The notes: a model not told the origin generated them from the sequence alone. Numbered from the stretch's first letter, positions 1 to 22,331 are shown. The stretch: DNA of 64,000 nt from Methanomassiliicoccales archaeon (GCA_029907465.1 JARYLV010000001.1:76923-140922), one strand, 5' to 3'. Numbers and translations are program-made.

Positions 1-566
1 CGAAAGTAATCCACAATGGCGTTTCCCTTGAACTCTTCAAACCCTATGACAAAAGATTGTCGAGAGAGCTGCTTAGTATAGATTGGGATGGCCCACTCGG
101 CGTTTTCGTTGGGAGAGCAGAATACGCGAAGGGGTTCGACATCATCGAATCAATTTCGAAACTCATGCCGTCGATCAAGATACTCTGCGTGACAAATTCG
201 CCAGTGAAGAATAAAGGTCTGATAGTCATTGAAAACCTACCACACAATTTGATGCCTTTCTGTTACTCAGCATCGGACTTTTTCATTTTTCCGTCGCGGT
301 ACGAATCGGCTAGCTATTCAGCTCTTGAGGCAATGGCCTGCGATTTGCCGATCGTGGCTAGCCGTACAGGAATTTTTGAGGACATTCCAGAAGAGAAAGT
401 CGGAAAAATCGTCTTTTCTTTCAAGCCTGAGGATTATTGCCATGCAATCAAGGAGATCTTGAGGGGAGGGAAATACCCTGCGAGAGAATATGTCTCGGAG
501 CATTTCTCCTTTGAACGTTTTTCAGAAAATTACAAGAATCTGGCGAGAGAGCTTATCAAGGGATAA
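1..566 (+). CDS. Glycosyltransferase family 1 (GT4-type), C-terminal part; the 5' end lies outside the window
   Basis: The frame is open from nt 3 (KVIHNGVSLELFKP...), upstream of the ORF-track Met at 57. GT-B C-terminal signature 'PSRYESASYSALEAMACDLPIVASRTG' is present. Confidence 0.8.
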   Translation, partial: KVIHNGVSLELFKPYDKRLSRELLSIDWDGPLGVFVGRAEYAKGFDIIESISKLMPSIKILCVTNSPVKNKGLIVIENLPHNLMPFCYSASDFFIFPSRYESASYSALEAMACDLPIVASRTGIFEDIPEEKVGKIVFSFKPEDYCHAIKEILRGGKYPAREYVSEHFSFERFSENYKNLARELIKG

Positions 567-1053: not shown

Positions 1054-4000
1054 GTGGGGAGCGAGATGCAGAAGGGAGTGATTGTAAAAAGGACCTCAAC
1101 GCGTCGTTTGCCACAACTGCAAACCGTTACCAGGCGATCCCATAGAAATGCTGTTTCAATGAATCGTCGAAATCCTGATAACGCTCAAACAATCTCGCCA
1201 TATTTGAAGAAGCTTGTTCATAGCTTGCCCTCAATCCTCCCTAAGATCTGTGCAATTGCTCTCGTTTTGGTAATGACATTGGGCCCTTACGATTTACTTA
1301 TTATGGGCTCGCATGGAAACACAATTTCTGAATCAATAGGCGATACCTCTGCGACAAACTTTGAAAAAATAAATCATGAGGATTTTTCAATCGGTGTAAG
1401 ATCAGCAAATTTGACCATATCAACCGGAGAAAAATTGATCACCGTCTTGACTGAAGAGTACAAACTTGTTGTTGAATACGCTACATATTTCGTCAATTAT
1501 ACGATCCACCCGTATTTCACAACCGATTTCATTTGGTATCGGAGAATGGATCCATATTATCCCGGCAATGGAACAACAGATCACTTGGGCAACCCAATAG
1601 ACAACGTCAAGATGACGATTTCAAAATGGGGAAGAAATGGAAACATTGTCTGGTTTCTTGAGTCTTGTCCAGAATTCAGCCTGAACCAGAGTTTCAATTT
1701 TTTCAGAGACTACTTTGAACTCAATGTCACATATATCCCAGGGACTAAGAAAGTCGTGACGACGTATTTCATCGGTTTGTTTTCAGCATCTCGTACACTC
1801 TACAGCCTCGTGAGCGATTCAACTGGTCGGTACAATAGATACGTTCCTGGAGCACCTGAAAATACACCATCATCGAATGTGATAGGTGGTTGGTATCCGC
1901 GTAACGGGATGTTCGCACCAGCATGCGATATGAGAGCGTACGGAAGCAGTCTGGGGGTTGAGTGGGGATACAATGAGACCGTGGCGTACATCGCCTCCCC
2001 TCAATGGATGCAACCGAAGAATCCCACAAACGGCGGACCTTCTGTTTTCGGACTTAAATTCTCGTCAATCAATAGCGTTGTGCCAAATCCTGCACTCGGC
2101 ACAAGCAAGACATTCCAGATGTTTGTTAGACCCTACCAGTATACCGATGGAAAGCCCAGAGGGTATGATGTCGGATACGCCCAGTGGATAGGAGCTAAAA
2201 TCGCGAACGCATGGGGAAATCATGACACGCCCATCTTTCCCCTCACCATTATGGATTTGGGAAGCTGGACATCGACCTTCAGAAATTGGGTGGAAAACAG
2301 TCAGGTAAAAGTGGCCACCTATTCAAACAACCCTGCACAGATCAATTGGAATTACAAATCGGCGTCAAGAGCGAACTACAAACCAGATGATCCCACACAC
2401 GTTCCGACGGCATGGCAGATATACAAGAGTCCAGGGACGCCATACACCGATTCAAGTGGTAGCGTCATCTGTAGCCCAGTAAGCGGTCCATACAACCAAC
2501 AAGGCACTTTCCGATGGCATCTAATCATGAACGATTCTTCGCCTTCGTGGTGGTGGGGTTCAAAGGGCGTCTTTTGGGATATGATGGACTCAACGGACAG
2601 TCTCAATCAACCACGCAATGATTACCAGCAGAGGCCAGAGTTCGTTTTTCTGGGCTATCTTCATCTCGTTAAGGAATCGTACGCATCTGGTTATTGGGAT
2701 TACGTGATCACAAACTCATACATGCCTGTGATACATCTTGCGATTGCAAGCGACCTTACTGTCATGGAAGGGTATGAACCCTCGAGCGCATTCGGCGTTT
2801 CGATGAAAGCCCAGACAATTTCCACAATGAACTTTGTGAAGAATATACCAAAAGAATACAGGCCAAATATACTTGTATATCAGTATTATGATGCAACCGA
2901 TAATCCAAGTGACCAAGTAGATGTTTACAGTGCCCTATTTGGTGCTGCTAGATACGGTTTTTACATCACTCTGTACTCATATTCCTCATACGACAGCCAA
3001 ATGCACAATCTAGTGATGGCTGAAGAAATGTTCAAAGCGATGGGGACTGGCAGAGATGATGATGAAAGGATTGAAGTAGCGACCCTTGATCTAGGTTCAG
3101 AAGGTTCCTCCATTACGACCAATGCGTCGATGGTAGTAACACTTGGTAGCGGATCCCCAACAGTTACATTCCTCTCGTCATTCGATAAATACACAATTAC
3201 AAATCTCCATTCTGGATCAAACCAGTTCACCTTCGTCCTGCCAACTACCAAATTATACGAAAAAGGAAACGATATTGAAAGCGATGGTCGCATGACCTTT
3301 TTCCCGGATGGGAAAGCAGTTTTTCGAGGAACGATAAGCCCGGAGAAGACTGGACATATTCTTGGAAGAAACGATGTCTTTGTCTATCACCAAGTATCAG
3401 GTAATGTGACTGTTAATCTGGTACAAAAGAACAACAGCTATGCAAAACTCAACGTGAGCGCCACTGGTGGAACAACGATGATAAAGCTCGCAGGCTTTAC
3501 ACCCGGACAGACCTATGACATTGTTATCAATGGGCAAGTTCTCTACAAGGTCTCTGCCGATAACCAAGGCATTGTCCAGTTTACGCACGCGTATGGCATC
3601 GAGAATCAGGTCATCGTCCAGAAAGGTAGCGCCACCGACACTACAGCTCCGACTGTGGTTTCGACAACACCAGCAGATGGGGAAAGAGATGTCGAAGTAA
3701 CAGAAAAGATCACTGTCTTTTTCAGTGAGGCAATGAACACTACTGCAACAGAGATGGCTTTCAGCCTCATGAGAAAGGGTTCAACAGTCTCTGGATCCGT
3801 CCAATGGAACTCCCAGAAAACGACGATGACGTTCACGCCATCAACTCTTCTCGAATACTCAACAACCTATTTCATCAATATTTCTACAGGAGCGAAGGAC
3901 GTTGCGGGAAACAGGCTCATTTCGTCAATTTCGTATTCGTTTACGACAAAGGGAACCGACGAAACGACACCACCGAGAATCACTGATGTATATCCAAAAA

Positions 4001-7000
4001 AAGGTAGCACAGATGTCACGCTCGGCACCATGATCGTATTGACATTCAGTGAGCCTATGAACACCACAATCACATCTCGATCGTTTCACCTCACCTCGCA
4101 ACAGGGAGAGACCTCCGGAAAATTTGAGTGGCTTGACAACAATACAACCCTCATATTCACCCCTGCTGGTGGCCTCCTTCCGTCAACGACCTACATGCTC
4201 CTCGTCGAATCGAGAGCATCGGATATTTTTGGGAATAACTTAACGGAGCCTTTCACGAGCACATTCCGCACGGTGGAAGACAAAACTGACGATATTCCGC
4301 CATCCATTCAATCAACGATCCCAGTGGCGGGGGCTGAAGGAGTCGATGTCACACAGGACATCATCATCGTTTTTAGTGAGCGGATGAATAAGACGTCGGT
4401 CGAAAACGCATTTTCACTGGAATCATCTTCCCAGCAGGTGCACGGGATCTTCTTGTGGGATTCCAATGCTCAAGTCCTCGTATTTACACCACACTCGCAA
4501 CTAGAGTATAATACAACCTACAATTTGACGGTTCAATCGAGCGCAAGAGACATTGCTGGGAATGCTCTTGCTTCAAAATTTGAGTCCGCATTTACGACGG
4601 AAAATGGCCAAACGACGAACGCTCCCACAGTGATCGACATATATCCATTTGACGGGTGCACCGATGTCCAGCTCTCGAGCAATATTATCGTGACTTTTGA
4701 TAAAATCATGGATGTAGCAAAGACTAATGAAGCAATCCATGTCATTAGGTCCGGGGTAGAGCTCACTGGTGAGAAATACTGGATGGCAAAAAATACGACG
4801 TTGGTATTCGTACCCGCGACAATGCTAACTCCAGCTTCAGAGTACACCGTAACCGTTTCGGCGTCCGCTACAGATATCTTCGGAAACCCACTTGGCAGAG
4901 ATTTTTCAAGCAGGTTCACAACGACATCTAGCCAGCAAGATACCGTTCCTCCGATTATTCTGCACCAGCCAACTTCTAACGCCGAGGTCGGAAGGGTTTA
5001 CGAGTTGAGGGCAAACGTGACTGATGTGAATAAACTTTCATTCGTCAAACTTTCGTATATTGATGTGGACGGGATTTATCACGAGGTTGCCATGGGACTT
5101 GGACAGTACTGCTTTGACGCAACGATCCAAGCGCAAACAAAAGAGGGGACGATCCGATATCGCATTCTCGCAGCCGACGAATACGGAAATCTGGCAACGA
5201 CGCAAGAGTACTCTATTCTTGTGCGAGATACGACTTCTCCAGAAATCCAGATCGTGTCCCCGCTTCCAGGTTCTAAAATAATAGAGATCACGAATATTGA
5301 AACAATAGCTCGAGACAATTATGGTATAAGATCTGTAGAGTTTTATGTTGATGATGCCCTGGTAGCAAATGACGGACAGGAACCTTACGTGGCACCATTC
5401 AATCCGAGGGACTTCAAGGAAGGTGCACACAGGTTGCTTGTCAAGGCGATCGACCTAGTTGGCCTCGGAGCTGAGTCATCACTCGACATAATCGTTGAGC
5501 ATGTGGATACTGAGGCACCGAGCATTGTAAACGTTTTTCCTCCCAACGGAATGACTGACGTGCCAGTTAACACGAGCATCACGATTACATTTAGCGAGGC
5601 GATGGATCACCAGAGTACGGAAGCTGCCATAGAGATCGAAGGTGGCGATCAATTCATCGAGTTCTATGTCGATTGGCAAAGCGATTCGTATCTGATCATC
5701 ACACCAGTAAACCCACTTAATTTTTCGACTCTTTATTACATAAATATCAGTGCGACAGCGATGGATTTATTTGGCAATAGATTGATCTCAGCATGGCAGA
5801 CAGTCTTCAAAACATTAGAGATCCCAGACACAAATCCACCATATGTTGTCAGTCACAGTCCAAATAATGGCCAAACGATGATCAACCTTGACGAAAAGGT
5901 CGTTGTAGTATTTAGCGAGAGCATGAACGCTACTTCTGTTGAAAGAGCTTTTCTCATGAGAAGCGGATCAGAAAAGATTGCGGGGCAATTTATATGGTCA
6001 GAGAGCAACATAGTGATGACCTTCGTGCCAGATAACTTCCTAAACATTTCGACAACATATCAGATTACGATATCTAAGAATGCAAAAGATCTTGCAGGTA
6101 ATGGATTGCTGGTTGATCTCTCATTCTCCTTCACCACTTATTCGTCAATGGAGAACGGGAGTATTTCGGGAATCGTCGTCTTCGATTCAAAACCTGTTGA
6201 GGGGGTCATCGTCACCGATGGATCAAGATATGTGGCTACTGGTCCAGATGGAAGATTTTTGATTCTAGATGTACCGCCCGGAAAGTACACGATCACCGTA
6301 GCGAAATTCGGGTATGCATGTAATAAATTGGTATCAGTGACGGTCGAGAGAGGAGTCTCCATTTCCGGGATAATTTTCGACATCGAAGAGTCGCCCGGTA
6401 ACTCTACGATTACTGGTATCGTCGTCAGCAAGAACGGATATCCCATTCCATCCGCCACGATCACACTGAAGGGGTTCACGGAAAAGACGTTTACCGATGA
6501 GAATGGAAGATTCATCATAACTGGCGTTCCACCTGGAAACTATTGGATAAAGGCATCAAAGCTTTTCCACAAGAGTACCACCATTTCGGATATCAACATC
6601 AAGGCGGGAGAGGATTTAGAAATCGTTCTCATCTCTTTGACATCCAATTTTGAATCGACCACACCACAATCTTATGGTGAAAATACAAACCCCGCAGACG
6701 GTGGTGTTATCTTATCAATCGCAATGGGGGCTGGAGCACTCGCTCTGGCAGGAGCCATGATCATGAAAAAGCCATGGCGTTCCGAAAAAACAAGAACAAA
6801 TGCCAGGTATGAATTTGAAAGAGATGCGTCAGACGAATCCTCGAAAGAGATTAGAATAGCCCAAATAAGGCGAATCGACCAACAATTCGAAAACAACACG
6901 TTCTTGCAAGATCAGAAGAAAGAGAACCTGGAAAGAGATGATGGGCAGAAAACAACGGATTTTGTGCGGATCAAGAGCAACATCGATCCAAAAGGAGAGG

Positions 7001-7044
7001 AGGATTTCGAACGGGGATTAAAGGAATTAGAACGACTTGTCTGA
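1054..7044 (+). CDS. Giant surface (S-layer-like) glycoprotein candidate. It has an N-terminal signal-anchor, a ~770-aa unassigned ectodomain, tandem SbsA/Big_5-like Ig modules, two carboxypeptidase-regulatory-like domains, a C-terminal TM helix and a charged ~90-aa tail.
   Basis: 1,996-aa ORF with a GTG start at 1054 (alternative ATG at 1066). Hydrophobic segment 'ICAIALVLVMTLGPYDLLIMG' lies near the N-terminus. Repeated 'D-x-T-x-P-x-(V/I)...P..G..DV....I.(V/I).FSE.MN.T' modules are present. 'GSISGIVV...GPDGRFLILDVPPGKYTITV' and 'STITGIVV...DENGRFIITGVPPGNYWIKA' match the CarboxypepD_reg pattern. TM 'GGVILSIAMGAGALALAGAMIMKK' is encoded at about nt 6700-6770. There are dozens of N-x-S/T sequons. 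Confidence 0.8.
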   Translation: MGSEMQKGVIVKRTSTRRLPQLQTVTRRSHRNAVSMNRRNPDNAQTISPYLKKLVHSLPSILPKICAIALVLVMTLGPYDLLIMGSHGNTISESIGDTSATNFEKINHEDFSIGVRSANLTISTGEKLITVLTEEYKLVVEYATYFVNYTIHPYFTTDFIWYRRMDPYYPGNGTTDHLGNPIDNVKMTISKWGRNGNIVWFLESCPEFSLNQSFNFFRDYFELNVTYIPGTKKVVTTYFIGLFSASRTLYSLVSDSTGRYNRYVPGAPENTPSSNVIGGWYPRNGMFAPACDMRAYGSSLGVEWGYNETVAYIASPQWMQPKNPTNGGPSVFGLKFSSINSVVPNPALGTSKTFQMFVRPYQYTDGKPRGYDVGYAQWIGAKIANAWGNHDTPIFPLTIMDLGSWTSTFRNWVENSQVKVATYSNNPAQINWNYKSASRANYKPDDPTHVPTAWQIYKSPGTPYTDSSGSVICSPVSGPYNQQGTFRWHLIMNDSSPSWWWGSKGVFWDMMDSTDSLNQPRNDYQQRPEFVFLGYLHLVKESYASGYWDYVITNSYMPVIHLAIASDLTVMEGYEPSSAFGVSMKAQTISTMNFVKNIPKEYRPNILVYQYYDATDNPSDQVDVYSALFGAARYGFYITLYSYSSYDSQMHNLVMAEEMFKAMGTGRDDDERIEVATLDLGSEGSSITTNASMVVTLGSGSPTVTFLSSFDKYTITNLHSGSNQFTFVLPTTKLYEKGNDIESDGRMTFFPDGKAVFRGTISPEKTGHILGRNDVFVYHQVSGNVTVNLVQKNNSYAKLNVSATGGTTMIKLAGFTPGQTYDIVINGQVLYKVSADNQGIVQFTHAYGIENQVIVQKGSATDTTAPTVVSTTPADGERDVEVTEKITVFFSEAMNTTATEMAFSLMRKGSTVSGSVQWNSQKTTMTFTPSTLLEYSTTYFINISTGAKDVAGNRLISSISYSFTTKGTDETTPPRITDVYPKKGSTDVTLGTMIVLTFSEPMNTTITSRSFHLTSQQGETSGKFEWLDNNTTLIFTPAGGLLPSTTYMLLVESRASDIFGNNLTEPFTSTFRTVEDKTDDIPPSIQSTIPVAGAEGVDVTQDIIIVFSERMNKTSVENAFSLESSSQQVHGIFLWDSNAQVLVFTPHSQLEYNTTYNLTVQSSARDIAGNALASKFESAFTTENGQTTNAPTVIDIYPFDGCTDVQLSSNIIVTFDKIMDVAKTNEAIHVIRSGVELTGEKYWMAKNTTLVFVPATMLTPASEYTVTVSASATDIFGNPLGRDFSSRFTTTSSQQDTVPPIILHQPTSNAEVGRVYELRANVTDVNKLSFVKLSYIDVDGIYHEVAMGLGQYCFDATIQAQTKEGTIRYRILAADEYGNLATTQEYSILVRDTTSPEIQIVSPLPGSKIIEITNIETIARDNYGIRSVEFYVDDALVANDGQEPYVAPFNPRDFKEGAHRLLVKAIDLVGLGAESSLDIIVEHVDTEAPSIVNVFPPNGMTDVPVNTSITITFSEAMDHQSTEAAIEIEGGDQFIEFYVDWQSDSYLIITPVNPLNFSTLYYINISATAMDLFGNRLISAWQTVFKTLEIPDTNPPYVVSHSPNNGQTMINLDEKVVVVFSESMNATSVERAFLMRSGSEKIAGQFIWSESNIVMTFVPDNFLNISTTYQITISKNAKDLAGNGLLVDLSFSFTTYSSMENGSISGIVVFDSKPVEGVIVTDGSRYVATGPDGRFLILDVPPGKYTITVAKFGYACNKLVSVTVERGVSISGIIFDIEESPGNSTITGIVVSKNGYPIPSATITLKGFTEKTFTDENGRFIITGVPPGNYWIKASKLFHKSTTISDINIKAGEDLEIVLISLTSNFESTTPQSYGENTNPADGGVILSIAMGAGALALAGAMIMKKPWRSEKTRTNARYEFERDASDESSKEIRIAQIRRIDQQFENNTFLQDQKKENLERDDGQKTTDFVRIKSNIDPKGEEDFERGLKELERLV
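3637..4935 (+). repeat. Four tandem protein-level Ig-like (SbsA/Big_5-type) modules of 107-110 aa inside the surface-protein gene
   Basis: Module starts are at nt 3637 (DTTAPTVVSTTPADGERDV), 3958 (DETTPPRITDVYPKKGSTDV), 4288 (DDIPPSIQSTIPVAGAEGVDV) and 4615 (TNAPTVIDIYPFDGCTDV). Each module continues with '..I.V.FSE.MN.T' and ends '...F.T'. Confidence 0.8.
5506..6145 (+). repeat. Two further Ig-like modules of the same type, following two different Ig-like domains at 4939-5500
   Basis: Module starts are at nt 5506 (DTEAPSIVNVFPPNGMTDV...ITFSEAMDHQS) and 5827 (DTNPPYVVSHSPNNGQTMI...VVFSESMNATS). Confidence 0.75.
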
Positions 7045-7122: not shown

Positions 7123-7929
7123 TCAAAGGATCATCGCAAGGCCGATAATGAGGCCACATTCCAATGATCTAGAAATGCCATTGAGGACGACACAATGAAA
7201 CTTCGAATAGAGCCACCCCAAAATGATTGCGAAGATAAAAACGACAAGGCAAAACTCAATCAAGCCCCACAGAGCGCTTAGCCCGGTGTCTAGCAAAGCG
7301 GGAATGACGATTGATTGTGTCCTCGAACTAGTCGGTTCCATGTTTTTTTGCAACCCACTTCTGAAAAATACTTCCTCCATATAACCGAAAAAAATTGCTA
7401 TCGGCAACAATGGCAGAAGCAGATCCGTTCGGACAATTCGAGCTATTGTTCCATGAAGCACGGAAAAACTGACGATACCAAAGCCGATGCCAATCACGAT
7501 TGCAACAGCGATCCAATAGCGTTTATACGGCAAGCAATCAACAAATGAAACATTGGACAATAGCAGCGCTAAAAAGAACACAATTGAAAGGACAAGAATA
7601 TCGATATACGCATCCCCAGATGAGGGCAAGGAGACGGAGACAAAAGTAAATGCAGCAAGTATCGATAAGAATTTTCCAGTTTGTATTATTTCGATTTTGA
7701 GCGAGTATGCTGCCAGAGCTGTCGAAAAAATCAAAGCGATTAGCAGAGATCCGAGTGCAAAGACATAAATTACACTGTCATTTAATTTAATTGATACAAA
7801 TAATAAAAGGTCTGCTACAATAATCAATGCAAAAACCAGGTATAGCTTCCAATTCAAGGCTTTATTCTTGACTGCCGACATGTTCCCATTCAATTTCTCC
7901 CCTAATATCTTATTGGTATTCATCATCAT
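7123..7929 (-). CDS. CPBP-family intramembrane glutamic endopeptidase (CAAX-protease-like)
   Basis: 268-aa polytopic protein. It carries CPBP motif 1 'EExxxR' (YMEEVFFRSG) and an 'HxxxN' motif (FHCVVLNG). Confidence 0.7.
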   Translation of the reverse strand: MMMNTNKILGEKLNGNMSAVKNKALNWKLYLVFALIIVADLLLFVSIKLNDSVIYVFALGSLLIALIFSTALAAYSLKIEIIQTGKFLSILAAFTFVSVSLPSSGDAYIDILVLSIVFFLALLLSNVSFVDCLPYKRYWIAVAIVIGIGFGIVSFSVLHGTIARIVRTDLLLPLLPIAIFFGYMEEVFFRSGLQKNMEPTSSRTQSIVIPALLDTGLSALWGLIEFCLVVFIFAIILGWLYSKFHCVVLNGISRSLECGLIIGLAMIL

Positions 7930-8176: not shown

Positions 8177-9121
8177 TCATTCTGTTACTGTAACCCATAG
8201 CCATAACTCCTGAACCTTTTCCCCATACATCAGACGAAAAATAATCTTGTATTCTCCGGGTGTATCGATCGAAAATGTAAAGGTATTTTTCTGGCACTGA
8301 TCAGCGGACAAAACGAATTCATCGCAATAGGCAATACCAGATTGCAAGGTTGTTGCGTTATTCCAATCGATTTTATCGTAAGATGTGATAGAAGACAGAT
8401 CACCGATTCCAATTGTTAAATTATAGCTCATTTCGGTGTTCATCTTGTTGGTTATTGCGACTATGAGAGCTGACACGTCCCCAACTCTAACTGAACTTGG
8501 CAATTCATTAAGATCGCCTTCTACACCTTTGAGTTCCATAATCGCATCTCGACCTTCATACGGGCTGTAGCCAGGTCCGATTATAGCCACTGCAAGTGCC
8601 GTTGCAAACGCTAGAATAATGAAAATCAGAATAACCTTTTCCCCCTTTGTGAACTTCATGCGTGGAAGACTGACTTCGATGACAAGTTTCAATTGTTCAT
8701 CAGGTGGTATCTTTGATCGTACATGATAGGCTATAGCTGAACAAGCAAATGTTAATAGAAGGATTTCCGTGGTGACGGTTCGCCAATCTAGTAAATTAGA
8801 CATTGCGAGCGCAGTGCCGATGAGAGAAAGAACTATCAGACTGATAACAACACTGATTGCAAATCTCTCAAGGAAAGATATGCGCATCTTCATTCCTTTG
8901 GAACTTGAAGAAAAAGCACGTGAAATTGGCAAATCGTTGCGAGGGAAGATTATAGCCGTGATTACATACCCTGGGAAAAAGAAGATTGAGAACGTCGCCA
9001 AAAGCCAATTGATAGGGTGACCTGGTACGACCGCTGAAAGACCACATGCTACAACAACGGTAGAACATGCGATGAGGAGATCATACGGCTTACCTGGCGC
9101 TGCAATCGTGATAGTTGGCAC
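8177..9121 (-). CDS. DUF1616-type archaeal membrane protein (N-terminal TM bundle plus C-terminal extracellular beta domain)
   Basis: The N-terminus 'DLLIACSTVVV...LLATFSIFFFPGYVITAIIFPRNDL' matches my memory of the DUF1616 N-terminal pattern. A beta-rich C-terminal ~130 aa follows the last TM helix. Confidence 0.6.
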   Translation of the reverse strand: MPTITIAAPGKPYDLLIACSTVVVACGLSAVVPGHPINWLLATFSIFFFPGYVITAIIFPRNDLPISRAFSSSSKGMKMRISFLERFAISVVISLIVLSLIGTALAMSNLLDWRTVTTEILLLTFACSAIAYHVRSKIPPDEQLKLVIEVSLPRMKFTKGEKVILIFIILAFATALAVAIIGPGYSPYEGRDAIMELKGVEGDLNELPSSVRVGDVSALIVAITNKMNTEMSYNLTIGIGDLSSITSYDKIDWNNATTLQSGIAYCDEFVLSADQCQKNTFTFSIDTPGEYKIIFRLMYGEKVQELWLWVTVTE

Positions 9122-9163: not shown

Positions 9164-10312
9164 CTACTGTCGGGACTTCGCAATCAATGAATCTATGATA
9201 TTGTGCACCCGTTTTCCTACTACCTCCCATGAGTACTTTTCATCAATGAGTCTGCGCCCTTCGGAACCAATCCTCTCTCGAAGTGCGTCGTCGGTGAGTA
9301 ACCTCATGAATTCGTTCAGGAACGAGGATTTGTCTCTTGCGACGAGGCAATTCAATTCGTGCTTCAGCTCTGGCATTCCTACCGTTGCAACTTCTGTGAG
9401 AATTGTCGGCTTTCCTGCTGAAAGCATGTCTACAACCTTTGTGAGAACTCCGACTCCGCGCCAAAGCGGGGCAATGCATATATCAGAAGCGTGAAGCCAT
9501 AGGCAAAGACCTGGGTCAAAGGGAACGAACCCAAGATGTTTGACATTTTCTGGCAGTCTCTCAGGTTTTGCCCCGCCCCCAGCGATGCAAAAAACTACTG
9601 ACGGAAATTCTTTTTCTACTCTTTTTGACAACACTTCGATAATAAAATTGACCGCCTCCATGTTCGGCTCATAGCTGAGAGTTCCAAAAAAGAGGACAAT
9701 CACTGTATCGCGCGGAATGCCAAGAATCTCCCTCACCATTTCTTTCGACTTCGCATTTCTATCCATTATCTCTGTATCGGCGCAGATCGGAATAATGTGA
9801 AACTTATCCATCGAAAAACCCATTCGGGCATATTCGTCAAAGTCTGTTTTTGAAACCACAAAAATTTTCGAAACGACTTTGTGAAGATACTTTTCCATTA
9901 AAATGTTCGCCGTTGAAAAGACTCTTGATTTCCCCATCGCCTCAGAGTACAATTTTACGTTCCCATGGTTGTCCCATACGGAAGGCTTTCCACTAATTTT
10001 AGCAGCAAGCGCTGATGCCAATGCAAAGTATGAGTTCTCAGCGAAAACGAGGTCGATGCCATTCGTTCTGATTGCTTTGATAGTCCCGAGAAAAAGCAGA
10101 AACTCGTCAATTGTGAAGAAAAAATACCTCAGGAATTTATTGTATTTTTGATCGTAGACCAGATGATTTAATTTACTAGGAGAAATGGGATAAATATCAT
10201 AATATTTGGAAAGTGCAAGGAACATTTTTGGAACACGCTCGTTTGTGGTCACGGGCAGGGAAACAGCTGGAACGAATGCGATTCTCTTCCTCTTGGAGTT
10301 GAAGTGCTGCAA
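9164..10312 (-). CDS. Glycosyltransferase family 1 (GT4-type)
   Basis: 382-aa GT-B architecture with a C-terminal 'GVGVLTKVVDMLSAGKPTILTEVATVGMPEL' block. The start is TTG at 10312, immediately after the stop of the upstream gene. Confidence 0.8.
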   Translation of the reverse strand: MQHFNSKRKRIAFVPAVSLPVTTNERVPKMFLALSKYYDIYPISPSKLNHLVYDQKYNKFLRYFFFTIDEFLLFLGTIKAIRTNGIDLVFAENSYFALASALAAKISGKPSVWDNHGNVKLYSEAMGKSRVFSTANILMEKYLHKVVSKIFVVSKTDFDEYARMGFSMDKFHIIPICADTEIMDRNAKSKEMVREILGIPRDTVIVLFFGTLSYEPNMEAVNFIIEVLSKRVEKEFPSVVFCIAGGGAKPERLPENVKHLGFVPFDPGLCLWLHASDICIAPLWRGVGVLTKVVDMLSAGKPTILTEVATVGMPELKHELNCLVARDKSSFLNEFMRLLTDDALRERIGSEGRRLIDEKYSWEVVGKRVHNIIDSLIAKSRQ

Positions 10313-10313
10313 T

Positions 10314-11507
10314 TCAGGCCTCCTTATAGATCTTTAAAAATCTGTCGGCGGAGACTTCAAAGTCGAATTCACGTTCAGCAAGATTCCTCCCGATGCTCGC
10401 CATTTTTCTAATACGGTTACTGTCCGTTACGAGAGTTACGAGTTCTTCTCCCATTCTTGCAGAATCGCCTGACAACATGACGCCAGCACCCTTATCGATA
10501 ATGTCTGTCTTTATTCCTCTTCCAAAGGATGATGCGATCGGCACTCCGCATGAGATCGATTCAATAGCGACAAACGGGAAAAGATCGATTCTGCTTGTAA
10601 TCAGCAAAAGGTCCGCGACATTGTAAAGAAGGGGCATCGTATTGTGTCTAAAAGGTTGAGTGATCAAGCGTATATTCTTCTTCAGATTCAATGAATCGAT
10701 GAGTTCGCGGAGCTTCCCTTCCTCAGGACCAACACCTTGGATAATCAAAATGGAATTTGGGAGTTCTCTCACCACATTAACCATCGCCACTATGAGTTTG
10801 TCAATCCCCTTAATCCAATCAAGTCTCGAGACCGAAAGCAGGACGAAATCCGCATCCTCAATCCCAAGTCTCTTCCTGCATTGGTATTTGTCCATAGGTC
10901 TAAAATTCGTCGTATCTACGCCAGAGTGCACAATCTCTCTCAATTTATCCTGCGGAAACCCACATGCAATAAGATGCGATTTTGCAGAAAGGGAGCGAGG
11001 AATTAAACCGGAGATCCCATCAATCATCGCCCTCTTGCTGAATTTATAAAAAAGGGATTGAACCATCCCAGCTGGTTGCCTCATGAAAACATCGATCTCC
11101 TGCCAGACAAAATGACGAGCTTCAATGGATTTTGCTCCCAGCCATGAAAGTACTGTCCCAATCTGGAACAAATCTGACGCTTGAACGACATCGTAATGCT
11201 CTCTCGCTATTTGCGTAGCAAGCGAAGGCGTGAAGGGCATGAAAGGAGCTGGGATCGCTGATTGCAATCTCGTAGGGAGATAGTGAACTCGCAAATTTTC
11301 ATCAAAGACAACCTGCTCCAACGGACGAAATGCATCGGCGACAAAGATGTCAACCTCGTGTCCCCTTGAAGCAATCCTCTTACCCATTTCAAGAATCTGA
11401 ATGCCAGAGTCAGTCGCAGGTCTTAGGTTATTGGCTTTGAATAGAAGACTGGGATCGGAGAGCACATCCGAACTCTTTGTTATCAGATTGACAAGTCCAA
11501 TTTTCAT
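10314..11507 (-). CDS. Glycosyltransferase family 1 (GT4-type)
   Basis: GT-B motifs 'DLFPFVAIESISCGVPIASS' are present. I place the start at the ATG at 11507 (MKIGLVNL...), which forms an ATGA overlap with the stop of the upstream gene. The ORF-track start at 11537 would overlap that gene by 34 nt. Confidence 0.85.
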   Translation of the reverse strand: MKIGLVNLITKSSDVLSDPSLLFKANNLRPATDSGIQILEMGKRIASRGHEVDIFVADAFRPLEQVVFDENLRVHYLPTRLQSAIPAPFMPFTPSLATQIAREHYDVVQASDLFQIGTVLSWLGAKSIEARHFVWQEIDVFMRQPAGMVQSLFYKFSKRAMIDGISGLIPRSLSAKSHLIACGFPQDKLREIVHSGVDTTNFRPMDKYQCRKRLGIEDADFVLLSVSRLDWIKGIDKLIVAMVNVVRELPNSILIIQGVGPEEGKLRELIDSLNLKKNIRLITQPFRHNTMPLLYNVADLLLITSRIDLFPFVAIESISCGVPIASSFGRGIKTDIIDKGAGVMLSGDSARMGEELVTLVTDSNRIRKMASIGRNLAEREFDFEVSADRFLKIYKEA

Positions 11508-13234
11508 CCTGCCCGCCGACCTTTGTAGATTATCCAATACGCGCCGTTATCAAATACCTTATTGTAATTCCCACTTTCGTTGACATAGTGCTGGTAAATG
11601 AATTCCATACCGTATTGTCTATACCACAACTCAGAAGTTCGATCGAATATGATGGCCCCCGCTGTCCTGTTTGATGTGAAATTCTCAAGTTTCAAGGGAT
11701 AAGCGTTGAAGAGGTAAATGTTGTAAAAATTCTTGGGCGGCAAACCACTCCATACATCGGAAGGGAAGAATCCGCCGATAATGAACGATCCATTAGCAAT
11801 ATTTTGATTGATGTAATCTGATGCTTCAAAAGACTCCTCGCTGACGATATAGAGACCCTCCTGATAAAAGAGGGTACTAGCGCACGACATGGAGATAAAT
11901 ATCAAAAAAATCCCAATGGCTGACCCAATTTTTTTCTTTTCAATCCGAACATAGAATATCGCGACGATAATGGATGCACTCAAGACGAGGAAAAGGAGAC
12001 CGCGATCATAAAGCTGCCCCTTGAACAGCACGATGTCCAAAAGACCTACGGCAATTGGCAAAATAATCAGTGCGATAATCATTGATTTAATACTTGACCG
12101 CCTCTTTTTCGCTGAAAATGCGTAAAGGAGTAACGCAAAAAACGCCTGGAGAAGAAGAATGAGGATGAAAACCAATCGAATCAAAGGCGCGACACTAAAA
12201 ATATTCCCAGCCGTTCTCATAGTGACGGTGCCCGTTGCTGCCATGGGTAAATAGACAAGATACTGGAGCCGATTCACCACTTGATCTAATAGAATTGTTG
12301 AGTAGGTGATCGAACCTGTGAAGAGCCACAGGAACCAAATGAGGAAAAAAACTGGAAAGGGCCATGTTCTTTCAAACTGTTCACCACGTGTTTTCATGAC
12401 GACTCTTTTCATCCTCAAATAGATCTCTCTGATCAGAATCCCGCCAAGCACAAATAGTACTGTGGTCGGATGAGAGATCACAATGAATAAAAAGGCGAAG
12501 ATTGCAATGAGCGTCCATATTACTGTTTGTCTTTCAAGAAAGACGAAAACAAAAAGCCCTACAGCAAAACCGATCGATTGAGGCGAAAAATGCAGTTGAA
12601 TCCAAACATCGCCAAGAATAGCAATAAAAAGGGCGTATCGATACTCGACACTGGGCACATAGGTTCGAATGAAGAAATAAAGGGCCAAGAGAGTAAAGAG
12701 TGCCGAAAAGAGTGGGTAATACTTCAGGAGTATCAAAGAAGGCACAGATGCGAGAATTTCGTAAGACGCAGTAACGACAAACATACCTGGGTAATTATAT
12801 GCGTAAGAATAAATCCCCAAATCTTTTAGCCCTCCACTCATAGCAATTTGCGACACTGGAACAAAATGAGAATAGCTGTCCCAAATCGACGGGTATCGTT
12901 CAAAGAAAACGGGAGCGCACCATAGCGAGAGGAAGAGAAAAGATGTGACAAGAAGAAAGAGATGCTCATTCATGAGGTTCCAGCTGAGAACGACGGAGAA
13001 AACGATAAAGAAGATACCAATCCAATAGTATATCGGCAAAACCTCTAGTAGGCCGAACTGAAGAGTTTCAGGCAACCATTCGTATTCAACCCCAATGGAT
13101 GAGACGACCACAATCGTGAAGCCAGCGAGAGAGAGTAATGCGATTAGGAGCGGCCTAATCTGATGAGTCTGATTGGAAAATGAAGCATTTTCTCTTTGCT
13201 TGCTATCGGACAATCCGAGACCTTCTGTGACCAT
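11504..13234 (-). CDS. Large polytopic membrane protein (~14 TM helices plus ~110-aa C-terminal soluble domain). It may be a GT-C-like glycosyltransferase or a glycan polymerase (DUF2206-like).
   Basis: 576-aa ORF that is hydrophobic throughout, with a soluble C-terminus 'EESFEASDYINQNI...YWIIYKGRRAG'. It is the first gene of the minus-strand GT operon. The family assignment is not secure. Confidence 0.45.
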   Translation of the reverse strand: MVTEGLGLSDSKQRENASFSNQTHQIRPLLIALLSLAGFTIVVVSSIGVEYEWLPETLQFGLLEVLPIYYWIGIFFIVFSVVLSWNLMNEHLFLLVTSFLFLSLWCAPVFFERYPSIWDSYSHFVPVSQIAMSGGLKDLGIYSYAYNYPGMFVVTASYEILASVPSLILLKYYPLFSALFTLLALYFFIRTYVPSVEYRYALFIAILGDVWIQLHFSPQSIGFAVGLFVFVFLERQTVIWTLIAIFAFLFIVISHPTTVLFVLGGILIREIYLRMKRVVMKTRGEQFERTWPFPVFFLIWFLWLFTGSITYSTILLDQVVNRLQYLVYLPMAATGTVTMRTAGNIFSVAPLIRLVFILILLLQAFFALLLYAFSAKKRRSSIKSMIIALIILPIAVGLLDIVLFKGQLYDRGLLFLVLSASIIVAIFYVRIEKKKIGSAIGIFLIFISMSCASTLFYQEGLYIVSEESFEASDYINQNIANGSFIIGGFFPSDVWSGLPPKNFYNIYLFNAYPLKLENFTSNRTAGAIIFDRTSELWYRQYGMEFIYQHYVNESGNYNKVFDNGAYWIIYKGRRAG

Positions 13235-13368: not shown

Positions 13369-14034
13369 ATGTGGCTCCCCGGCCATTTAGCTCTTTCAGC
13401 TCTTGCGGTTTTACCGGTCATCGAGGCTATAGCCTCCAAGAGAAGTGTGAACCGGATTCAAGTTCTCGCATTTCTCTTCTTCTTCTCCGTCTTTCCAGAT
13501 TTCTTGCACATCGGTGAACTTCGGATTCTGACTCATAGTCTCCTCGGTCTCAGCCTTTCTGTAGCCATTATTACTTTACTAATATGGAAACTGGTAGGAA
13601 TCGATCGGATCCTCTTGTCCATCACAATCGTAGCATCAGGACTTCATCTTTTAGGGGATTGGATCTTTGGACATTTCTACCCCTTATTCCCATTTTCCAC
13701 GCAATATTTCTCAATCAACAATTTCAACACACTGCTGAATATGAGAACAGAGTTATTATTATTCATACTGGTGCTGCCTTTTATCTTTCTCGTCTTAAAA
13801 AAGGCGTATCGAGACACCAACTCCATCAGCTACCCGCCGAAACAACGGCATATTGCACTCGTCATGGTATCAGCATTTATGTTGATGGGCACCGTCCAAA
13901 CGATATTATTTTTCGGAATGAGTGTGCAACATGCTCCTACGCTGACTTCCATATCCCTATTCATTACATATCCAATTATTCTCTTTCTCTCGATTTTGAT
14001 CGCTATCGCGATCAGCAAAAAGGGCTTTTTATGA
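13369..14034 (+). CDS. Membrane-bound metal-dependent hydrolase, YdjM/DUF457 family
   Basis: Motifs are collinear with E. coli YdjM: N-terminal 'PGH', 'FPDFLH', 'ILTHSLLG' and 'GLHLLGD'. About 6 TM segments. Confidence 0.6.
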   Translation: MWLPGHLALSALAVLPVIEAIASKRSVNRIQVLAFLFFFSVFPDFLHIGELRILTHSLLGLSLSVAIITLLIWKLVGIDRILLSITIVASGLHLLGDWIFGHFYPLFPFSTQYFSINNFNTLLNMRTELLLFILVLPFIFLVLKKAYRDTNSISYPPKQRHIALVMVSAFMLMGTVQTILFFGMSVQHAPTLTSISLFITYPIILFLSILIAIAISKKGFL

Positions 14035-14360
14035 GAAATATTGTGGAATTGCAATAGCCCCTTTCATTTTCAATTCCCTAGGAAAAATCCAGTGCGAATG
14101 CTGCGGAAAGGATCGTTCGATGACCCTCTAACTATATTACTTTCAAAAAGATGGGAAAAGTTTATTAATATTGTGTAGCACATAAGTAACTGAAATTTGC
14201 CTCTTGGAAAACTTGGGTTTTTCTGGAGCAAATTGAGAAAGAAAGATCGATTAATTGGATGAAGACTCTTCAGGGGGGACGGATACGAGAAGCGACATAT
14301 TAGTGGATATTCGGAGTAACTCCTCTGGGATCGATCTCAAAACTGGGAGAGGAGTGAAAG

Positions 14361-15188
14361 ATGGAGAAAGTTGTCGTTATTATCCCAACTCTCAATGAAG
14401 AGTGTCGCATAGGCAACGTCATTGATGGACTTTTGGAAATAAGAGATCAACTTACAGACTTGCAGCTTGAGATCATCGTCGTTGACGGCGGATCAACGGA
14501 TAAGACCACCGAGATTGCGAAACGAAAGGGAGCGAGAGTTTTTGTCCAGAACGGCAACGGTAAAGGAAATGGAATGCGACAGATCTTTGCGTTAGGAAAC
14601 CCTCAGGAGGTGGTCATACAAGCCCTTTCGTTGAGTTCCGATGTTGATTCAAAGCTTCACACACTTCTAACACTCCTTGGCTCACGATATATCATGATGA
14701 TGGACGGTGATGGCACTTATCTTGCATCTGATCTTATAAAGGTCCTTGAAGCGCTTCGCAGAGGATATGATGTCGTAATGGGTTCAAGATTTCTCGGAAG
14801 AATTGAGAAGAATGCGATGAGGAGATTGAATTACCTAGGCAATCTCATGCTCAGTTTAATCGCATCGATTATTTATCAGAAAAAAACGACAGATCTCTGC
14901 ACGGGCATGTGGGGTTTTAGCACACAGGCTCTCAGGCAAATGGATCTCGATTCGACCCATTTTGACCTAGAGGCAGAGATGTTCGCTGAATGCTCAAAAA
15001 GAGGATTTAGAATAGGGGAGGTTCCCATAAATTATCTACCCCGGGCGGGCAATTCGAAACTTATCCCTACCGTTGCTGGTTTTGCAATCTTCAAGAAACT
15101 CATTCAAAGACGATTTGCTAGCATGGGAAGCAAAATTGCCAAGACGTCTGAAACAAAGAAAAAAGCTATCACTGTGGAAGTGCGTTGA
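14361..15188 (+). CDS. Glycosyltransferase family 2 (dolichyl-phosphate sugar synthase-like)
   Basis: 'VVIIPTLNEE...IIVVDGGSTDKT' and DxD 'MMDGDGTY' are present. A GGAGAGGAG Shine-Dalgarno sequence lies just upstream of the ATG. Confidence 0.85.
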   Translation: MEKVVVIIPTLNEECRIGNVIDGLLEIRDQLTDLQLEIIVVDGGSTDKTTEIAKRKGARVFVQNGNGKGNGMRQIFALGNPQEVVIQALSLSSDVDSKLHTLLTLLGSRYIMMMDGDGTYLASDLIKVLEALRRGYDVVMGSRFLGRIEKNAMRRLNYLGNLMLSLIASIIYQKKTTDLCTGMWGFSTQALRQMDLDSTHFDLEAEMFAECSKRGFRIGEVPINYLPRAGNSKLIPTVAGFAIFKKLIQRRFASMGSKIAKTSETKKKAITVEVR

Positions 15189-15220
15189 ATACTCAGTAGG
15201 CAATTGCTGAAAGGATAAGT

Positions 15221-16429
15221 ATGAGAGTCGCGATCACTACCCCCGAATTTTTGTCGGATTGGGGAGGCGTTGGCACCTATGCAGCTCTACTTGCAAAGAA
15301 TTTGCCGGAAGAGTTCGAGGTTCATGTCATCACACTTCGGCCTTCGAAAGAAATTGAAAGCTTGAAGCAAAAAGAAGTCTTTGAACGCGCAAAGGTGCAC
15401 ATAATTGGGTCAGCTAGTGACACATTCATTTACAATAGTCAATTCCAATTTAACCTCATGAGAAAATTCAGAATGCTGCAGAAAGAAGGAAAGTTCGACA
15501 TCCTTCACGCGAACCACGCCCAGATGCCCGATCTTCTACTTAAGTTTTTCAAAGTTGGTATACCCTCTGTGACAACCGTTCATACCACTTTAAGATCGCA
15601 GATGATGGGGACATCATCTTCGCATCTCAGTCTAAAAGAGATGGAACGTTCGGAGAAAATGACAGCCCTATTTTCGCCTGCACTCCTTGCCGCGGAACGA
15701 ATGTATATAGGGCGATGCGAAAATCTGATTTTCGTTTCTAATTACATTCAGAAACTGTTTGAGGTTTCATTTGGAAAGCCCAAACGTTTCGAGGTCATTC
15801 ATAACGGTATCGACACGGATCTCTTTAGACCAAGAGATGAAAGAGAGTGTTATAGCTATTTTCCAATGCTGGAGGGCCACGAGAACATCATTCTATTCAT
15901 CGGAAGAATGCTTGCTTTGAAGGGACTCGATGTACTCATTGATTCCTTTGCGAAGATAATTCAGGAAATTGATGCGCACCTGGTACTTGCAGGTGCTGGG
16001 AGTTTTGAACCTTGGAGGAAACGACTCATAAGGAATAACATTCCTGGCTCAAAATATACCTTCCTGGGAAAGGTCCCGCACTATAAGATCCCATTTTTGT
16101 ACCCTCTTGCGTCAGTGTTCACACTACCTAGTTACTCCGAAAGTTTTCCGTTAACGATTTTGGAAGCAATGTCTTGCGGCGTCCCAGTGGTAGCTACCAA
16201 TGTTGGCGGCCTCCCGGAAATGATCGAAGACGGTGTTAATGGTTTCTTAGTCGAACCGGGTGATCCTGCCACGCTAGCCCAAAAAATATTCCAAGTCATC
16301 CATTCGAGGGAAAAAGCCTCGGAACTCGCAAGAAAAGGAAGATATAGGGCCGTCATTGAATTTTCTGCGAAGAGGATGGCGAACGAAACAGCGGAAATGT
16401 ACAAGAGAGTGATCGGGGTGGTGGAGTGA
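15221..16429 (+). CDS. Glycosyltransferase family 1 (GT4-type)
   Basis: 'PSYSESFPLTILEAMSCGVPVVATNVGGLPEMIEDGVNGFLV' (E-x7-E region). 402 aa. Confidence 0.9.
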   Translation: MRVAITTPEFLSDWGGVGTYAALLAKNLPEEFEVHVITLRPSKEIESLKQKEVFERAKVHIIGSASDTFIYNSQFQFNLMRKFRMLQKEGKFDILHANHAQMPDLLLKFFKVGIPSVTTVHTTLRSQMMGTSSSHLSLKEMERSEKMTALFSPALLAAERMYIGRCENLIFVSNYIQKLFEVSFGKPKRFEVIHNGIDTDLFRPRDERECYSYFPMLEGHENIILFIGRMLALKGLDVLIDSFAKIIQEIDAHLVLAGAGSFEPWRKRLIRNNIPGSKYTFLGKVPHYKIPFLYPLASVFTLPSYSESFPLTILEAMSCGVPVVATNVGGLPEMIEDGVNGFLVEPGDPATLAQKIFQVIHSREKASELARKGRYRAVIEFSAKRMANETAEMYKRVIGVVE

Positions 16430-17859
16430 AAGTCCTACTCGTAAATCCACCACGATTTAACGGTGTCCCAGTGATTAGAGAAGAGCGATGTGAGATTACA
16501 GAAAGATACTCCGTCTTAGAACCCTACAGTTTACTTCAAATCGCCGCAGATCTGCTGCAACGGGGGTATCTCGTCTACCTTGCTGATTTGAATGGTTTCA
16601 ATCTTTCCTATGACAGATTTGCTTCAGACCTGAAGAGAATTAGTCCTGACGTAGTCGTATTTCGATTCACGCCGACGACTTTTGATTGGGACATGAAGAC
16701 CGCTGGAATTGCCAAATCCTTCGATGCGCGAATCAAGACTATTGGTATATGCTGGACATTGAGAACAATGCCTGAAACAGTGATGACTAATGCGCCGAAT
16801 CTCGATATATATGTCCGGCACGAGTATGAGGTCACAACACCTGCCGTTCTCGATGCGATTTCCTCCGGAGTGGATCTCGCTGCCGTGAGGGGTATTGCCT
16901 ATCGTAATGATGAGGAGATCAGGGTTACCGACGACGCCTTTCCTCTGCACGATTATGATTCACTTCCACTACCTGCCTATGATCTCTTACCAAGTTTCAA
17001 ACCTTACTATGTCACCGCACCCGCGGGTAAGCCGTTTACAATCATGTACACGAGCAAGGGATGCCCCTTCAAATGCTCGTTCTGTACTGTTGCTGGTACA
17101 GCTTGGAAGCCAAGGTCTGCCGAGAAAATACTGGAAGAACTGAGATTTCTCAAACAAAGGTACAAAATTCGAACTGTCTCCTTCTTCGATGAGACTTTCA
17201 CGCTCGACAGGAAAAGAGTGGAAAAGATCTGCAAGATCCTGATAGAGGAGGATCTCGATTTCCAATGGTATTGCAACACGAGGGCGCATCTCGTTGACCG
17301 CGATCTCCTTTTCCTCATGAGAAAGGCTGGTTGCACTGGGATCTCCTATGGCATTGAATCGGGGAGCCAGAAAATCCTCGATTATTGTGACAAGAATTTG
17401 AAGGTCGAACAAGGAAAGAATGCGATCAGGTGGGCAAAAGAGGCGGGGATTAAGACATTTTGCAGCTTCATATTAGGTCTTCCCGGGGAGGATTGGGAAA
17501 CGATCGGTGAGACATTCAGATTTATCGATGAGACTTTGCCAACGAGTGCACAATTCAATGTCGCCGTACCATATCCAGGGACAAAGTTGTTTGAACAGAT
17601 GAAAAAAGAATACCCTCGCGAATTTGATTTTAGATTGCTTTATCAGGACGATGCTGTTGTCGGCACAGAAAGTCTTTCACCAGCAGATCTCAACAAAGTA
17701 CGGAAGATGGCATACAGAGCCCTCTACTTCAATCCGAATTGGTGGATTTCTAATATACAACATGTCCTAAAGAACCCTAAGGACATGCAGCTCGCCCTTG
17801 CATATGCGTTGAAAATAGCAGATAATTATTTAATTCACGGGATGAAAGATGCTCACTAG
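16426..17859 (+). CDS. Cobalamin-binding-domain radical SAM enzyme (class B type)
   Basis: An N-terminal Rossmann-like B12-binding-type domain (MKVLLVNPP...VVVFRFTPTT) is followed by the radical SAM cluster motif 'CPFKCSFC' (CxxxCxxC). The GTG start overlaps the upstream GT4 stop (GTGA). Confidence 0.8.
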   Translation: MKVLLVNPPRFNGVPVIREERCEITERYSVLEPYSLLQIAADLLQRGYLVYLADLNGFNLSYDRFASDLKRISPDVVVFRFTPTTFDWDMKTAGIAKSFDARIKTIGICWTLRTMPETVMTNAPNLDIYVRHEYEVTTPAVLDAISSGVDLAAVRGIAYRNDEEIRVTDDAFPLHDYDSLPLPAYDLLPSFKPYYVTAPAGKPFTIMYTSKGCPFKCSFCTVAGTAWKPRSAEKILEELRFLKQRYKIRTVSFFDETFTLDRKRVEKICKILIEEDLDFQWYCNTRAHLVDRDLLFLMRKAGCTGISYGIESGSQKILDYCDKNLKVEQGKNAIRWAKEAGIKTFCSFILGLPGEDWETIGETFRFIDETLPTSAQFNVAVPYPGTKLFEQMKKEYPREFDFRLLYQDDAVVGTESLSPADLNKVRKMAYRALYFNPNWWISNIQHVLKNPKDMQLALAYALKIADNYLIHGMKDAH

Positions 17860-17877
17860 AGACGAGGATCGGAGACG

Positions 17878-20458: not shown

Positions 20459-20472
20459 TAATCGGCCGTTGA

Positions 20473-22327: not shown

Positions 22328-22331
22328 GTGA

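Follow-up and report, generated by a model that had tools for sequence, protein, structure and literature searches.

Methanomassiliicoccales are an order of methanogens of guts, digesters and wetlands whose envelope is chemically undefined; in Methanomassiliicoccus luminyensis, the wall comprises a thin dense layer and a thick transparent layer of uncharacterised composition (PMC5628862). We describe here a giant surface-protein gene and its neighbours in a 64,000-nucleotide (nt) stretch of DNA from a Methanomassiliicoccales archaeon (GCA_029907465.1, JARYLV010000001.1:76923-140922), hereafter the window, with all positions counted from its first letter. The gene (1054..7044, + strand) is an open reading frame (ORF) that runs uninterrupted over 1996 codons and encodes, from N to C terminus, a basic region, a hydrophobic segment, a large head with a glycosidase-like modelled fold, a stalk of immunoglobulin (Ig)-like and transthyretin-like domains, a transmembrane (TM) helix and a charged tail.

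The GTG at 1054 is a mechanical start and sits inside a GGGGAG element (1056-1061) ahead of an ATG at 1066. Because this element precedes the ATG, and because the ATG aligns with that of a 90%-identical orthologue (L002, ORF of 1992 aa) in which the same arrangement is kept, ATG 1066 is the likely start and the protein likely has 1992 amino acids (aa). Features are numbered along the ORF from 1054, to which domain numbers of the head model are converted by adding 80.

A preliminary description of this stretch, generated by a model from the sequence alone, had called the ectodomain rich in W, Y and N and beyond assignment. Its composition is as stated (W 2.3%, Y 6.7% and N 6.9% over the head region, aa 81-860), and this region had no sequence match in Pfam (E up to 10), NCBIfam or PDB (phmmer); a head profile searched against PDB sequences (hmmsearch) gave chance OspA and fibronectin matches only, in the beta-sandwich part. 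Structure prediction, however, does assign it. The AlphaFold2 model of the head (m84862fcec3f9, from an alignment of 40 homologues; predicted local distance difference test [pLDDT], 92.7; predicted template modelling score [pTM], 0.90) divides into an N-terminal beta-supersandwich (model residues 35-282, aa 115-362; 1396..2139, +), a (beta/alpha)8 barrel (model residues 293-582, aa 373-662; 2170..3039, +), which Foldseek and family conservation also indicate, and two C-terminal beta-sandwich domains (model residues 595-777, aa 675-857; 3076..3624, +). The top 50 Foldseek matches in PDB were nearly all glycoside hydrolases (GH) of families GH36, GH31, GH97 and GH129, plus GH30 (E down to 3e-10, probability 1.0); they include GH36 alpha-galactosidases and, from GH31, YicI and sucrase-isomaltase, and the domain order of GH36, GH31, GH97 and GH129 is that of the head.

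Overlaying predicted secondary structure with family conservation placed near-invariant polar residues at the C-terminal ends of the barrel strands, namely D509 (beta4), N554 (beta5), E572 (beta6) and Q610/Y612 (beta7), with WWW499-501, R487 and D523 close to them. Clan GH-D enzymes carry their nucleophile at strand 4, where D509 (nt 2578-2580, +) ends the string 'GVFWD' and is at least 90% conserved. Strand 6 ends in E572 (nt 2767-2769, +), a Glu and not an Asp, and D567 lies just ahead of the strand. D509 and E572 are both kept in the most divergent members of the family (P0042, P0050 and P0053). The ectodomain string quoted in the preliminary description, 'SPSWWWGSKGVFWDMMDS', is the strand-4 region of the predicted barrel.

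A search of 5.8 billion proteins recovered 46 head homologues, nearly all annotated 'hypothetical protein', and those named are all from Methanomassiliicoccales or broader archaeal bins. A head-core profile (HMMER) matched 38 of 1.84 billion representative proteins, all of them family members or fragments, and within that set gave no bridge to a known GH family. When one genome per GTDB species was scanned, the head gene was found at 32 loci, from fen, mine, digester and sediment metagenome-assembled genomes (MAGs), some genomes having 2-3 paralogues. All but three of these loci are titled Methanomassiliicoccales, Methanomassiliicoccaceae or Methanomassiliicoccus, the remaining titles being a Thermoplasmata bin, two Methanobacteriota bins and 'Methanomicrobia archaeon'. 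In the window, a gene neighbouring the giant one is 100% identical to QHH00_00415 of a Methanomassiliicoccales MAG. Proteins of the family are 712 to 2232 aa long and have only the head in common: many are head-only (712-880 aa), with an N-terminal hydrophobic segment only, and the others continue into Big_5 plus CarboxypepD_reg domains, or FN3 or PKD repeats, before a C-terminal TM helix. A family that the models mark as glycosidase-like, recognisable by structure only and centred on one methanogen order, is notable.

Conservation along the giant protein is uneven. The head core is 95% identical to L002, 91% to L001 and 66% to the distant P0047, the Ig stalk 75%, 74% and 45%, and the TM helix 80%, 80% and 35%, respectively. 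Identity to L002 and L001 is 59% and 68% in the proximal tail and 27% and 36% in the middle tail, and the whole tail before its last 29 aa is 21% identical to P0047; the last 29 aa are 79%, 86% and 66% identical to L002, L001 and P0047. These figures mark out the head and the far C-terminal end as the regions under selection.

The L001 locus (from Joint Genome Institute metagenome 3300038743) is syntenic, and its giant gene is called as two proteins (1075 and 886 aa). An in-frame TAA (L001:13226-13228) replaces the Gln codon that corresponds to window aa 1084 (PPSI-Q-STIP); it could reflect a true nonsense mutation or a pseudogene, or else a sequencing error. The codon is not an amber/pyrrolysine one.

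Only two hydrophobic segments are present in the protein (aa 65-83 and aa 1885-1903). The second marks the C-terminal TM helix (aa 1883-1904, GGVILSIAMGAGALALAGAMIM, 22 apolar residues; 6700..6765, +), after which 6 K/R occur in 15 residues and before which there are none in 15; by the positive-inside rule, this asymmetry supports a cytoplasmic location of the tail. The C-terminal helix and a charged tail of about 90 aa had been read correctly at the outset: the tail has 91-93 aa (K+R 22%, D+E 24%). Identity to orthologues separates it into a proximal part with a variable linker (aa 1905-1967; 6766..6954, +) and a conserved extreme C-terminal motif (aa 1968-1996, VRIKSNIDPKGEEDFERGLKELERLV; 6955..7041, +), a predicted amphipathic helix that carries "EDFERGLKELERL". 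The length is exceptional, as the preliminary description had surmised. Most members with a C-terminal TM helix have tails of 6-29 aa and one FN3-stalk lineage (L007/P0049) has 70 aa, against 91-95 aa in the window protein, L001, L002 and P0047.

The large forms all end in a related motif, which reads EDFERGLKELERLV in the window protein, EDFERGLKELQKLL in P0047, KEDFERGLKELEKLE in the L036 variant, SFERTLRDLETANRIL in L007, KFDDALDTLETML in L004 and KFSEAVDALESLIK in L028; when the window and 33 loci were translated in all six frames, a regular expression for it matched family C-termini only. The hydrophobic moment of the last 16 residues, computed for a helix, is 0.74, a value reached by none of 2000 shuffles. 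Judged by these properties, the tail is a variable charged spacer bearing a conserved terminal amphipathic helix, and a cytoplasmic contact, as proposed before, fits the last 29 aa being so much better kept in P0047 than the rest of the tail or the stalk. A tail search of the 5.8-billion-protein set gave no candidate, a weak negative because known orthologues were missed too, and comparison with the window proteins gave no paralogue. Metagenomes scanned with exact tail peptides yielded nothing; scanned with the tail alignment, they yielded two loci, both with the head family and synteny.

Between head and helix, six Big_5 modules, two other Ig-like domains and two CarboxypepD_reg domains had been described, and all ten were recovered by Pfam together with a custom hidden Markov model (HMM), built from the first Big_5 module and used to set the module borders. 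Pfam matches exceed curated thresholds for Big_5 (6 stretches, 372 bits, E 2.9e-113), CarboxypepD_reg (2 stretches, 86 bits) and Big_7 (43 bits, aa 1396-1461). SbsA-type Big_5 modules 1-4 (aa 862-965, 970-1073, 1079-1182 and 1187-1290; 3637..4923, +) are followed by the two other Ig-like domains (aa ~1293-1480, including the Big_7 match; 4930..5493, +), Big_5 modules 5-6 (aa 1485-1587 and 1592-1695; 5506..6138, +) and the two transthyretin-like CarboxypepD_reg domains (aa ~1700-1857; 6151..6624, +). The Big_5 modules are 30-44% identical in pairs and are therefore old duplications, not an assembly artefact.

N-glycosylation sequons (n = 30) were rightly described as very frequent: their density is 1.50 per 100 aa versus 0.36 per 100 aa in 36 other window ORFs (~4x), with an excess that is modest when set against shuffles of the protein's own composition (22 +/- 4 expected, z ~2). 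Both close orthologues retain 22 of the 30, and P0047 retains 12 of these 22. One in every Ig module, as had been claimed, is too many. The loop FSExMNxT occurs in four of the six Big_5 modules (1, 2, 3 and 6), with modules 4 and 5 reading FDKIMDVA and FSEAMDHQ, and the equivalent loop of more distant relatives reads FSEPMD or FSEGMD, with D instead of N-x-T. Three of the four sequons in these loops are kept in all four orthologues. Their being at once lineage-specific and conserved points to selection for N-glycosylation of the Ig stalk.

Such a stalk could also belong to a structural envelope glycoprotein, an alternative near to what the preliminary description had in mind: a major S-layer-like (surface-layer-like) or glycocalyx building block whose head is a non-catalytic scaffold or lectin and which is a substrate of the neighbouring glycan cluster. 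The fourfold sequon density and the 22 sequons conserved in close orthologues suit this explanation, and an Ig-like stalk with a C-terminal TM helix resembles archaeal surface glycoproteins. The related Thermoplasmatales have an unordered glycoprotein layer and no S-layer (PMC12448462), which, with the wall of M. luminyensis, makes an enzymatic and a structural role both biologically plausible. It is the head, however, and not the stalk that is conserved and universally kept, with polar residues fixed at its strand ends, and many members are head-only proteins of 712-880 aa; the 2-3 paralogues of some genomes also fit a structural block poorly. Pfam and NCBIfam detected no recognised S-layer domain family in the protein and no PGF-CTERM/archaeosortase signal (...NPADGG... 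precedes the TM helix, without PGF). The head is no featureless ectodomain of S-layer type, S-layer family signatures were absent from these searches, and we regard a purely structural role as unlikely.

N-terminal to the head, the candidate start opens a basic, presumably cytoplasmic n-region of 60 aa (1066..1245, +; K/R, n = 13; D/E, n = 1), delimited by DNA and protein alignments with L002 and L001 and by charge count. It leads into a hydrophobic h/c-region (aa 65-85, ICAIALVLVMTLG-PYDLLIMG; 1246..1308, +), defined by Kyte-Doolittle hydropathy and cleavage sites of the AxA-like kind in orthologues. A weakly conserved n-region motif, '(D/N/E)P(D/E/S)(K/N)A..L(F/L)K.G(V/I).L', is shared with P0047, P0049, L004, L007 and L028. 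Across genera, the n-region motif of these proteins reads 'AL.RGA.LL....PEKA.LF.RG(I/V)RL', of which the window protein has the degenerate form 'NPDNAQTISPYLKKLV' (1066-1245); the long n-region may be a signal-peptide extension suited to the export of a giant protein. A Tat signal was rejected, as 'STRRL' lies ~45 residues ahead of the h-region, which is too distant.

The preliminary description had taken the protein to be double-anchored. On that account it would form an arch, held by an uncleaved signal anchor with both termini cytoplasmic, the head beside the GT-C-fold glycosyltransferase encoded nearby and the stalk looping out and back. An n-region of ~60 aa with 13 K/R, partly conserved across genera, is unusual for a plain signal peptide, the 19-residue hydropathy window peaks at 2.18, and head-only homologues, having no C-terminal TM helix, would need the N-terminal segment for attachment to the cell. 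Against this, the uninterrupted apolar run (ICAIALVLVMTLG) is only 13 residues long, compared with 22 in the C-terminal helix, and is followed by G-P-Y-D. Orthologues (VFA|T in L001, LMA|S in P0049 and DVA|S in L004) and paralogues (ALA|A, SQA|S and VSA|S in P0005-P0007) have canonical small-x-small sites at the expected distance, 18-25 residues past the start of the h-region. Giant surface proteins of bacteria, too, can have extended n-regions on signal peptides that are cleaved (the ESPR of autotransporters). Given the short h-region, the helix breaker and the small-x-small sites, the segment is probably a cleavable Sec signal peptide with an unusually long, partly conserved n-region; a signal anchor is possible, and the arch is a doubtful alternative that we nevertheless take seriously. 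Of the topology first proposed, the C-terminal anchor thus holds and the N-terminal one is questionable, and a surface-exposed, C-terminally anchored, sequon-rich modular protein is supported.

The giant gene has a fixed setting, assigned by domain annotation and synteny. A GT4 glycosyltransferase (57..566, +) lies upstream; downstream are a DUF1616 membrane protein (8177..9121, -), two GT4 glycosyltransferases (9164..11537, -), an orphan GT-C-fold membrane glycosyltransferase (11504..13234, -) and a run of genes on the opposite strand (13369..21618, +) for YdjM-like, GT2, GT4, B12-radical SAM, GT4, B12-radical SAM and FemAB-type GNAT proteins. The order GT4 and head gene (forward), DUF1616, GT4, GT4 and GT-C (reverse), then YdjM, GT2 and GT4 (forward) recurs in at least 17 loci or genomes at 27-57% protein identity (tblastn of window proteins against the loci). 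The GT-C-fold neighbour has 575 aa, at least 10 TM helices and a C-terminal soluble domain. It has no Pfam or NCBIfam match, and its homologues are all Methanomassiliicoccales 'hypothetical proteins'; its AlphaFold2 model (pTM 0.77) matches AftA, STT3, DPY19, ALG12/ALG9 and EmbB in Foldseek (E ~1e-4, probability 1.0), so that on its predicted structure it looks like an unannotated GT-C family. With this fold and the content of the cluster, the locus resembles a pathway in which a glycan made on a lipid carrier is completed on the outer side of the membrane, with the glycosidase-fold protein as a fixed member.

The link to glycosylation genes drawn in the preliminary description is therefore borne out, by a gene order shared among at least 17 genomes; the giant protein may be a substrate, a processing enzyme or both. 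Since the head is a glycosidase-like fold and the best-conserved part, the tie to the cluster may be that of an enzyme or binder of the glycan, instead of or as well as that of a substrate. For the structural explanation, it counts that GT-C enzymes include the protein glycosyltransferases STT3 and DPY19, and that AglB targets in Haloferax include DUF1616 proteins and giant glycoproteins (PMC8241124). Literature searches gave nothing specific on the head family or on DUF1616 function.

The neighbourhood also bears on the idea that the protein is an adhesin, or an enzyme scavenging foreign glycans from host, plants or biofilm matrix. In favour of this are its giant, modular and Ig-rich build as a surface protein and the frequency of adhesin-like proteins among gut methanogens (PMC11532034, PMC10804542). 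However, it occupies a constant position among biosynthetic genes in at least 17 genomes, which speaks for a glycan of the cell's own, and the fen, mine, digester and sediment MAGs of the family do not share a single host niche. Methanomassiliicoccales are, moreover, methyl-reducing methanogens that do not ferment sugars. We consider a role in foreign-glycan binding or scavenging very unlikely.

Further genes lie in and beside the cluster. Convergent with the giant gene is an Rce1-like (CPBP) intramembrane protease (7123..7929, -) with an EExxxR motif (EEVFFR), of which copies 21-67% identical occupy the matching position at L001, L002, L013, L017, L022, L023, L030, L035 and L036, giant and head-only loci alike. 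Of the long-tail loci, all five whose downstream DNA is visible (the window, L001, L002, L035 and L036) have the protease alongside; specificity for long-tailed variants was ruled out by divergent copies in the head-only loci L017, L022, L023 and L030. A small ORF for a 70-aa hydrophobic protein (7939-8151, -) lies between the protease and DUF1616 genes, and L001 has a 70-aa gene called at the matching place (16858-17070). The two B12-binding radical SAM genes (16426-17859 and 19073-20458, +) and the FemAB-type GNAT gene (Acetyltransf_6; 20473-21618, +) are interleaved with the glycosyltransferases, which suggests a methylated or aminoacylated glycan; at L001, a PIG-L deacetylase gene also lies upstream. 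A KaiC-like ATPase gene pair (21623-23171, -) directly follows the cluster in the window. A second very large ORF (35612-39958, +; 1448 aa) lacks both a Pfam match and a hydrophobic segment, and its sequon density is low (0.28 per 100 aa). A scan for bacterial-type promoters and terminators, ill-suited to archaea, gave no more sites than shuffled sequence.

We favour, with modest confidence, a C-terminally anchored, N-glycosylated envelope enzyme whose head processes or binds the glycan of the cluster and whose tail ends in a cytoplasmic contact motif. In this model, the protein of ~1,992 aa would be exported via the Sec pathway, its signal peptide probably being cleaved, and one C-terminal helix would retain it in the membrane (type I topology). 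The first ~750 mature residues would form the three-domain glycosidase-fold head, which might cleave, transglycosylate or at least specifically bind an envelope glycan assembled by the cytoplasmic GT4/GT2 enzymes, the extracytoplasmic GT-C-fold transferase and DUF1616. The ten Ig-like and transthyretin-like domains, putatively N-glycosylated at conserved sequons, would serve as a lineage-specific stalk and place the head tens of nanometres off the membrane, and the charged, poorly conserved spacer would offer the terminal helix (EDFERGLKELERL) either to the inner face of the membrane or to a partner in the cytoplasm. A bolder version, which we consider quite unlikely, is that the family is a new glycoside hydrolase/transglycosylase for the Methanomassiliicoccaceae wall and that the giant form also connects envelope and cytoplasm, its helix docking on a cytoskeletal, division or regulatory partner. 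If true, wall processing on the outside would be coupled to processes within the cell, in a manner akin to receptors or integrins that is not known to have been described for archaeal surface proteins.

Several observations weigh against an envelope enzyme of this kind. The head has no sequence link to any known GH family in the Pfam, NCBIfam, PDB (phmmer/hmmsearch) and profile comparisons, and hhalign of the family profile against Escherichia coli YicI (GH31) gave a probability of 0.5% and no mapping of catalytic residues. TM-scores to GH structures are modest (0.3-0.5, at ~8% identity), the assignment of D509 and E572 draws only on their conservation and their place on the strands, and Glu in place of Asp on beta6 is a departure from clan GH-D. 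It is not obvious why a methanogen should need a glycosidase, and identical data would be expected if the head were a pseudo-enzyme or a lectin. Signal-peptide cleavage was judged by eye from sequence features, and the tail searches found no partner.

The locus is a candidate piece of envelope machinery that combines GT4/GT2 enzymes, an orphan GT-C-fold transferase, DUF1616 and a surface glycosidase-fold protein, and the head-only homologues (~726 aa) are small enough for expression and assay. If active, the head would found a new GH family detectable by structure only, and with the terminal cytoplasmic helix the giant form would be a rare archaeal surface enzyme wired to the cell interior. 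If inactive, it would show how a catalytic fold came to serve as the unvarying head of archaeal surface proteins that otherwise differ widely.

Among known systems, the closest in fold are clan GH-D and related alpha-glycosidases (GH36 Thermotoga maritima GalA, 1ZY9; GH31 YicI, 1WE5; GH97 SusB; GH129 NagBb), which have the same three-domain order as the head. Strand 4 of the predicted barrel ends in an acidic residue within an aromatic-rich context, 'VFWDxM', which recalls 'KWDMN' of GH36 and 'WxDMNE' of GH31. The head differs from them in that it gives no HMM or profile-profile signal, shares only ~8% identity at TM-scores of 0.3-0.5, has Glu on strand 6, continues into an Ig stalk, a TM helix and a cytoplasmic tail, and has been seen only in Methanomassiliicoccales. 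In genomic setting, a working analogy, and not membership, is offered by PelA, PslG, BcsZ and Sph3/Ega3, small periplasmic or secreted glycoside hydrolases that are encoded in bacterial or fungal exopolysaccharide clusters and act in the way proposed for the head. As with these, an extracytoplasmic barrel-type glycosidase fold is predicted among transferases for a putative surface polymer; the fold families differ.

In overall build, the protein resembles archaeal S-layer glycoproteins (Halobacterium/Haloferax Csg and SlaB-type stalks) in its probable Sec signal, many sequons, beta-sandwich repeats and C-terminal TM helix. Those proteins, however, lack an enzyme-like head, and their helix is followed by only a few residues or by a PGF-CTERM signal, in contrast to the 91-aa tail with its terminal helix seen here. 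The brush-border GH31 enzymes, represented among the Foldseek matches by sucrase-isomaltase (3LPO), recall this build in that a GH31-type head is borne on a glycosylated stalk by a single anchor whose cytoplasmic segment is short; they are eukaryotic, act on dietary glycans and are anchored at the N-terminus (type II), and no homology extends past the fold. Finally, with its six bona fide Big_5 domains, Big_7 and CarboxypepD_reg, the protein is like the Big_5-repeat surface and adhesin-like proteins of methanogens, but in this family such repeats are only the variable stalk, for which relatives use FN3, PKD or no stalk at all.

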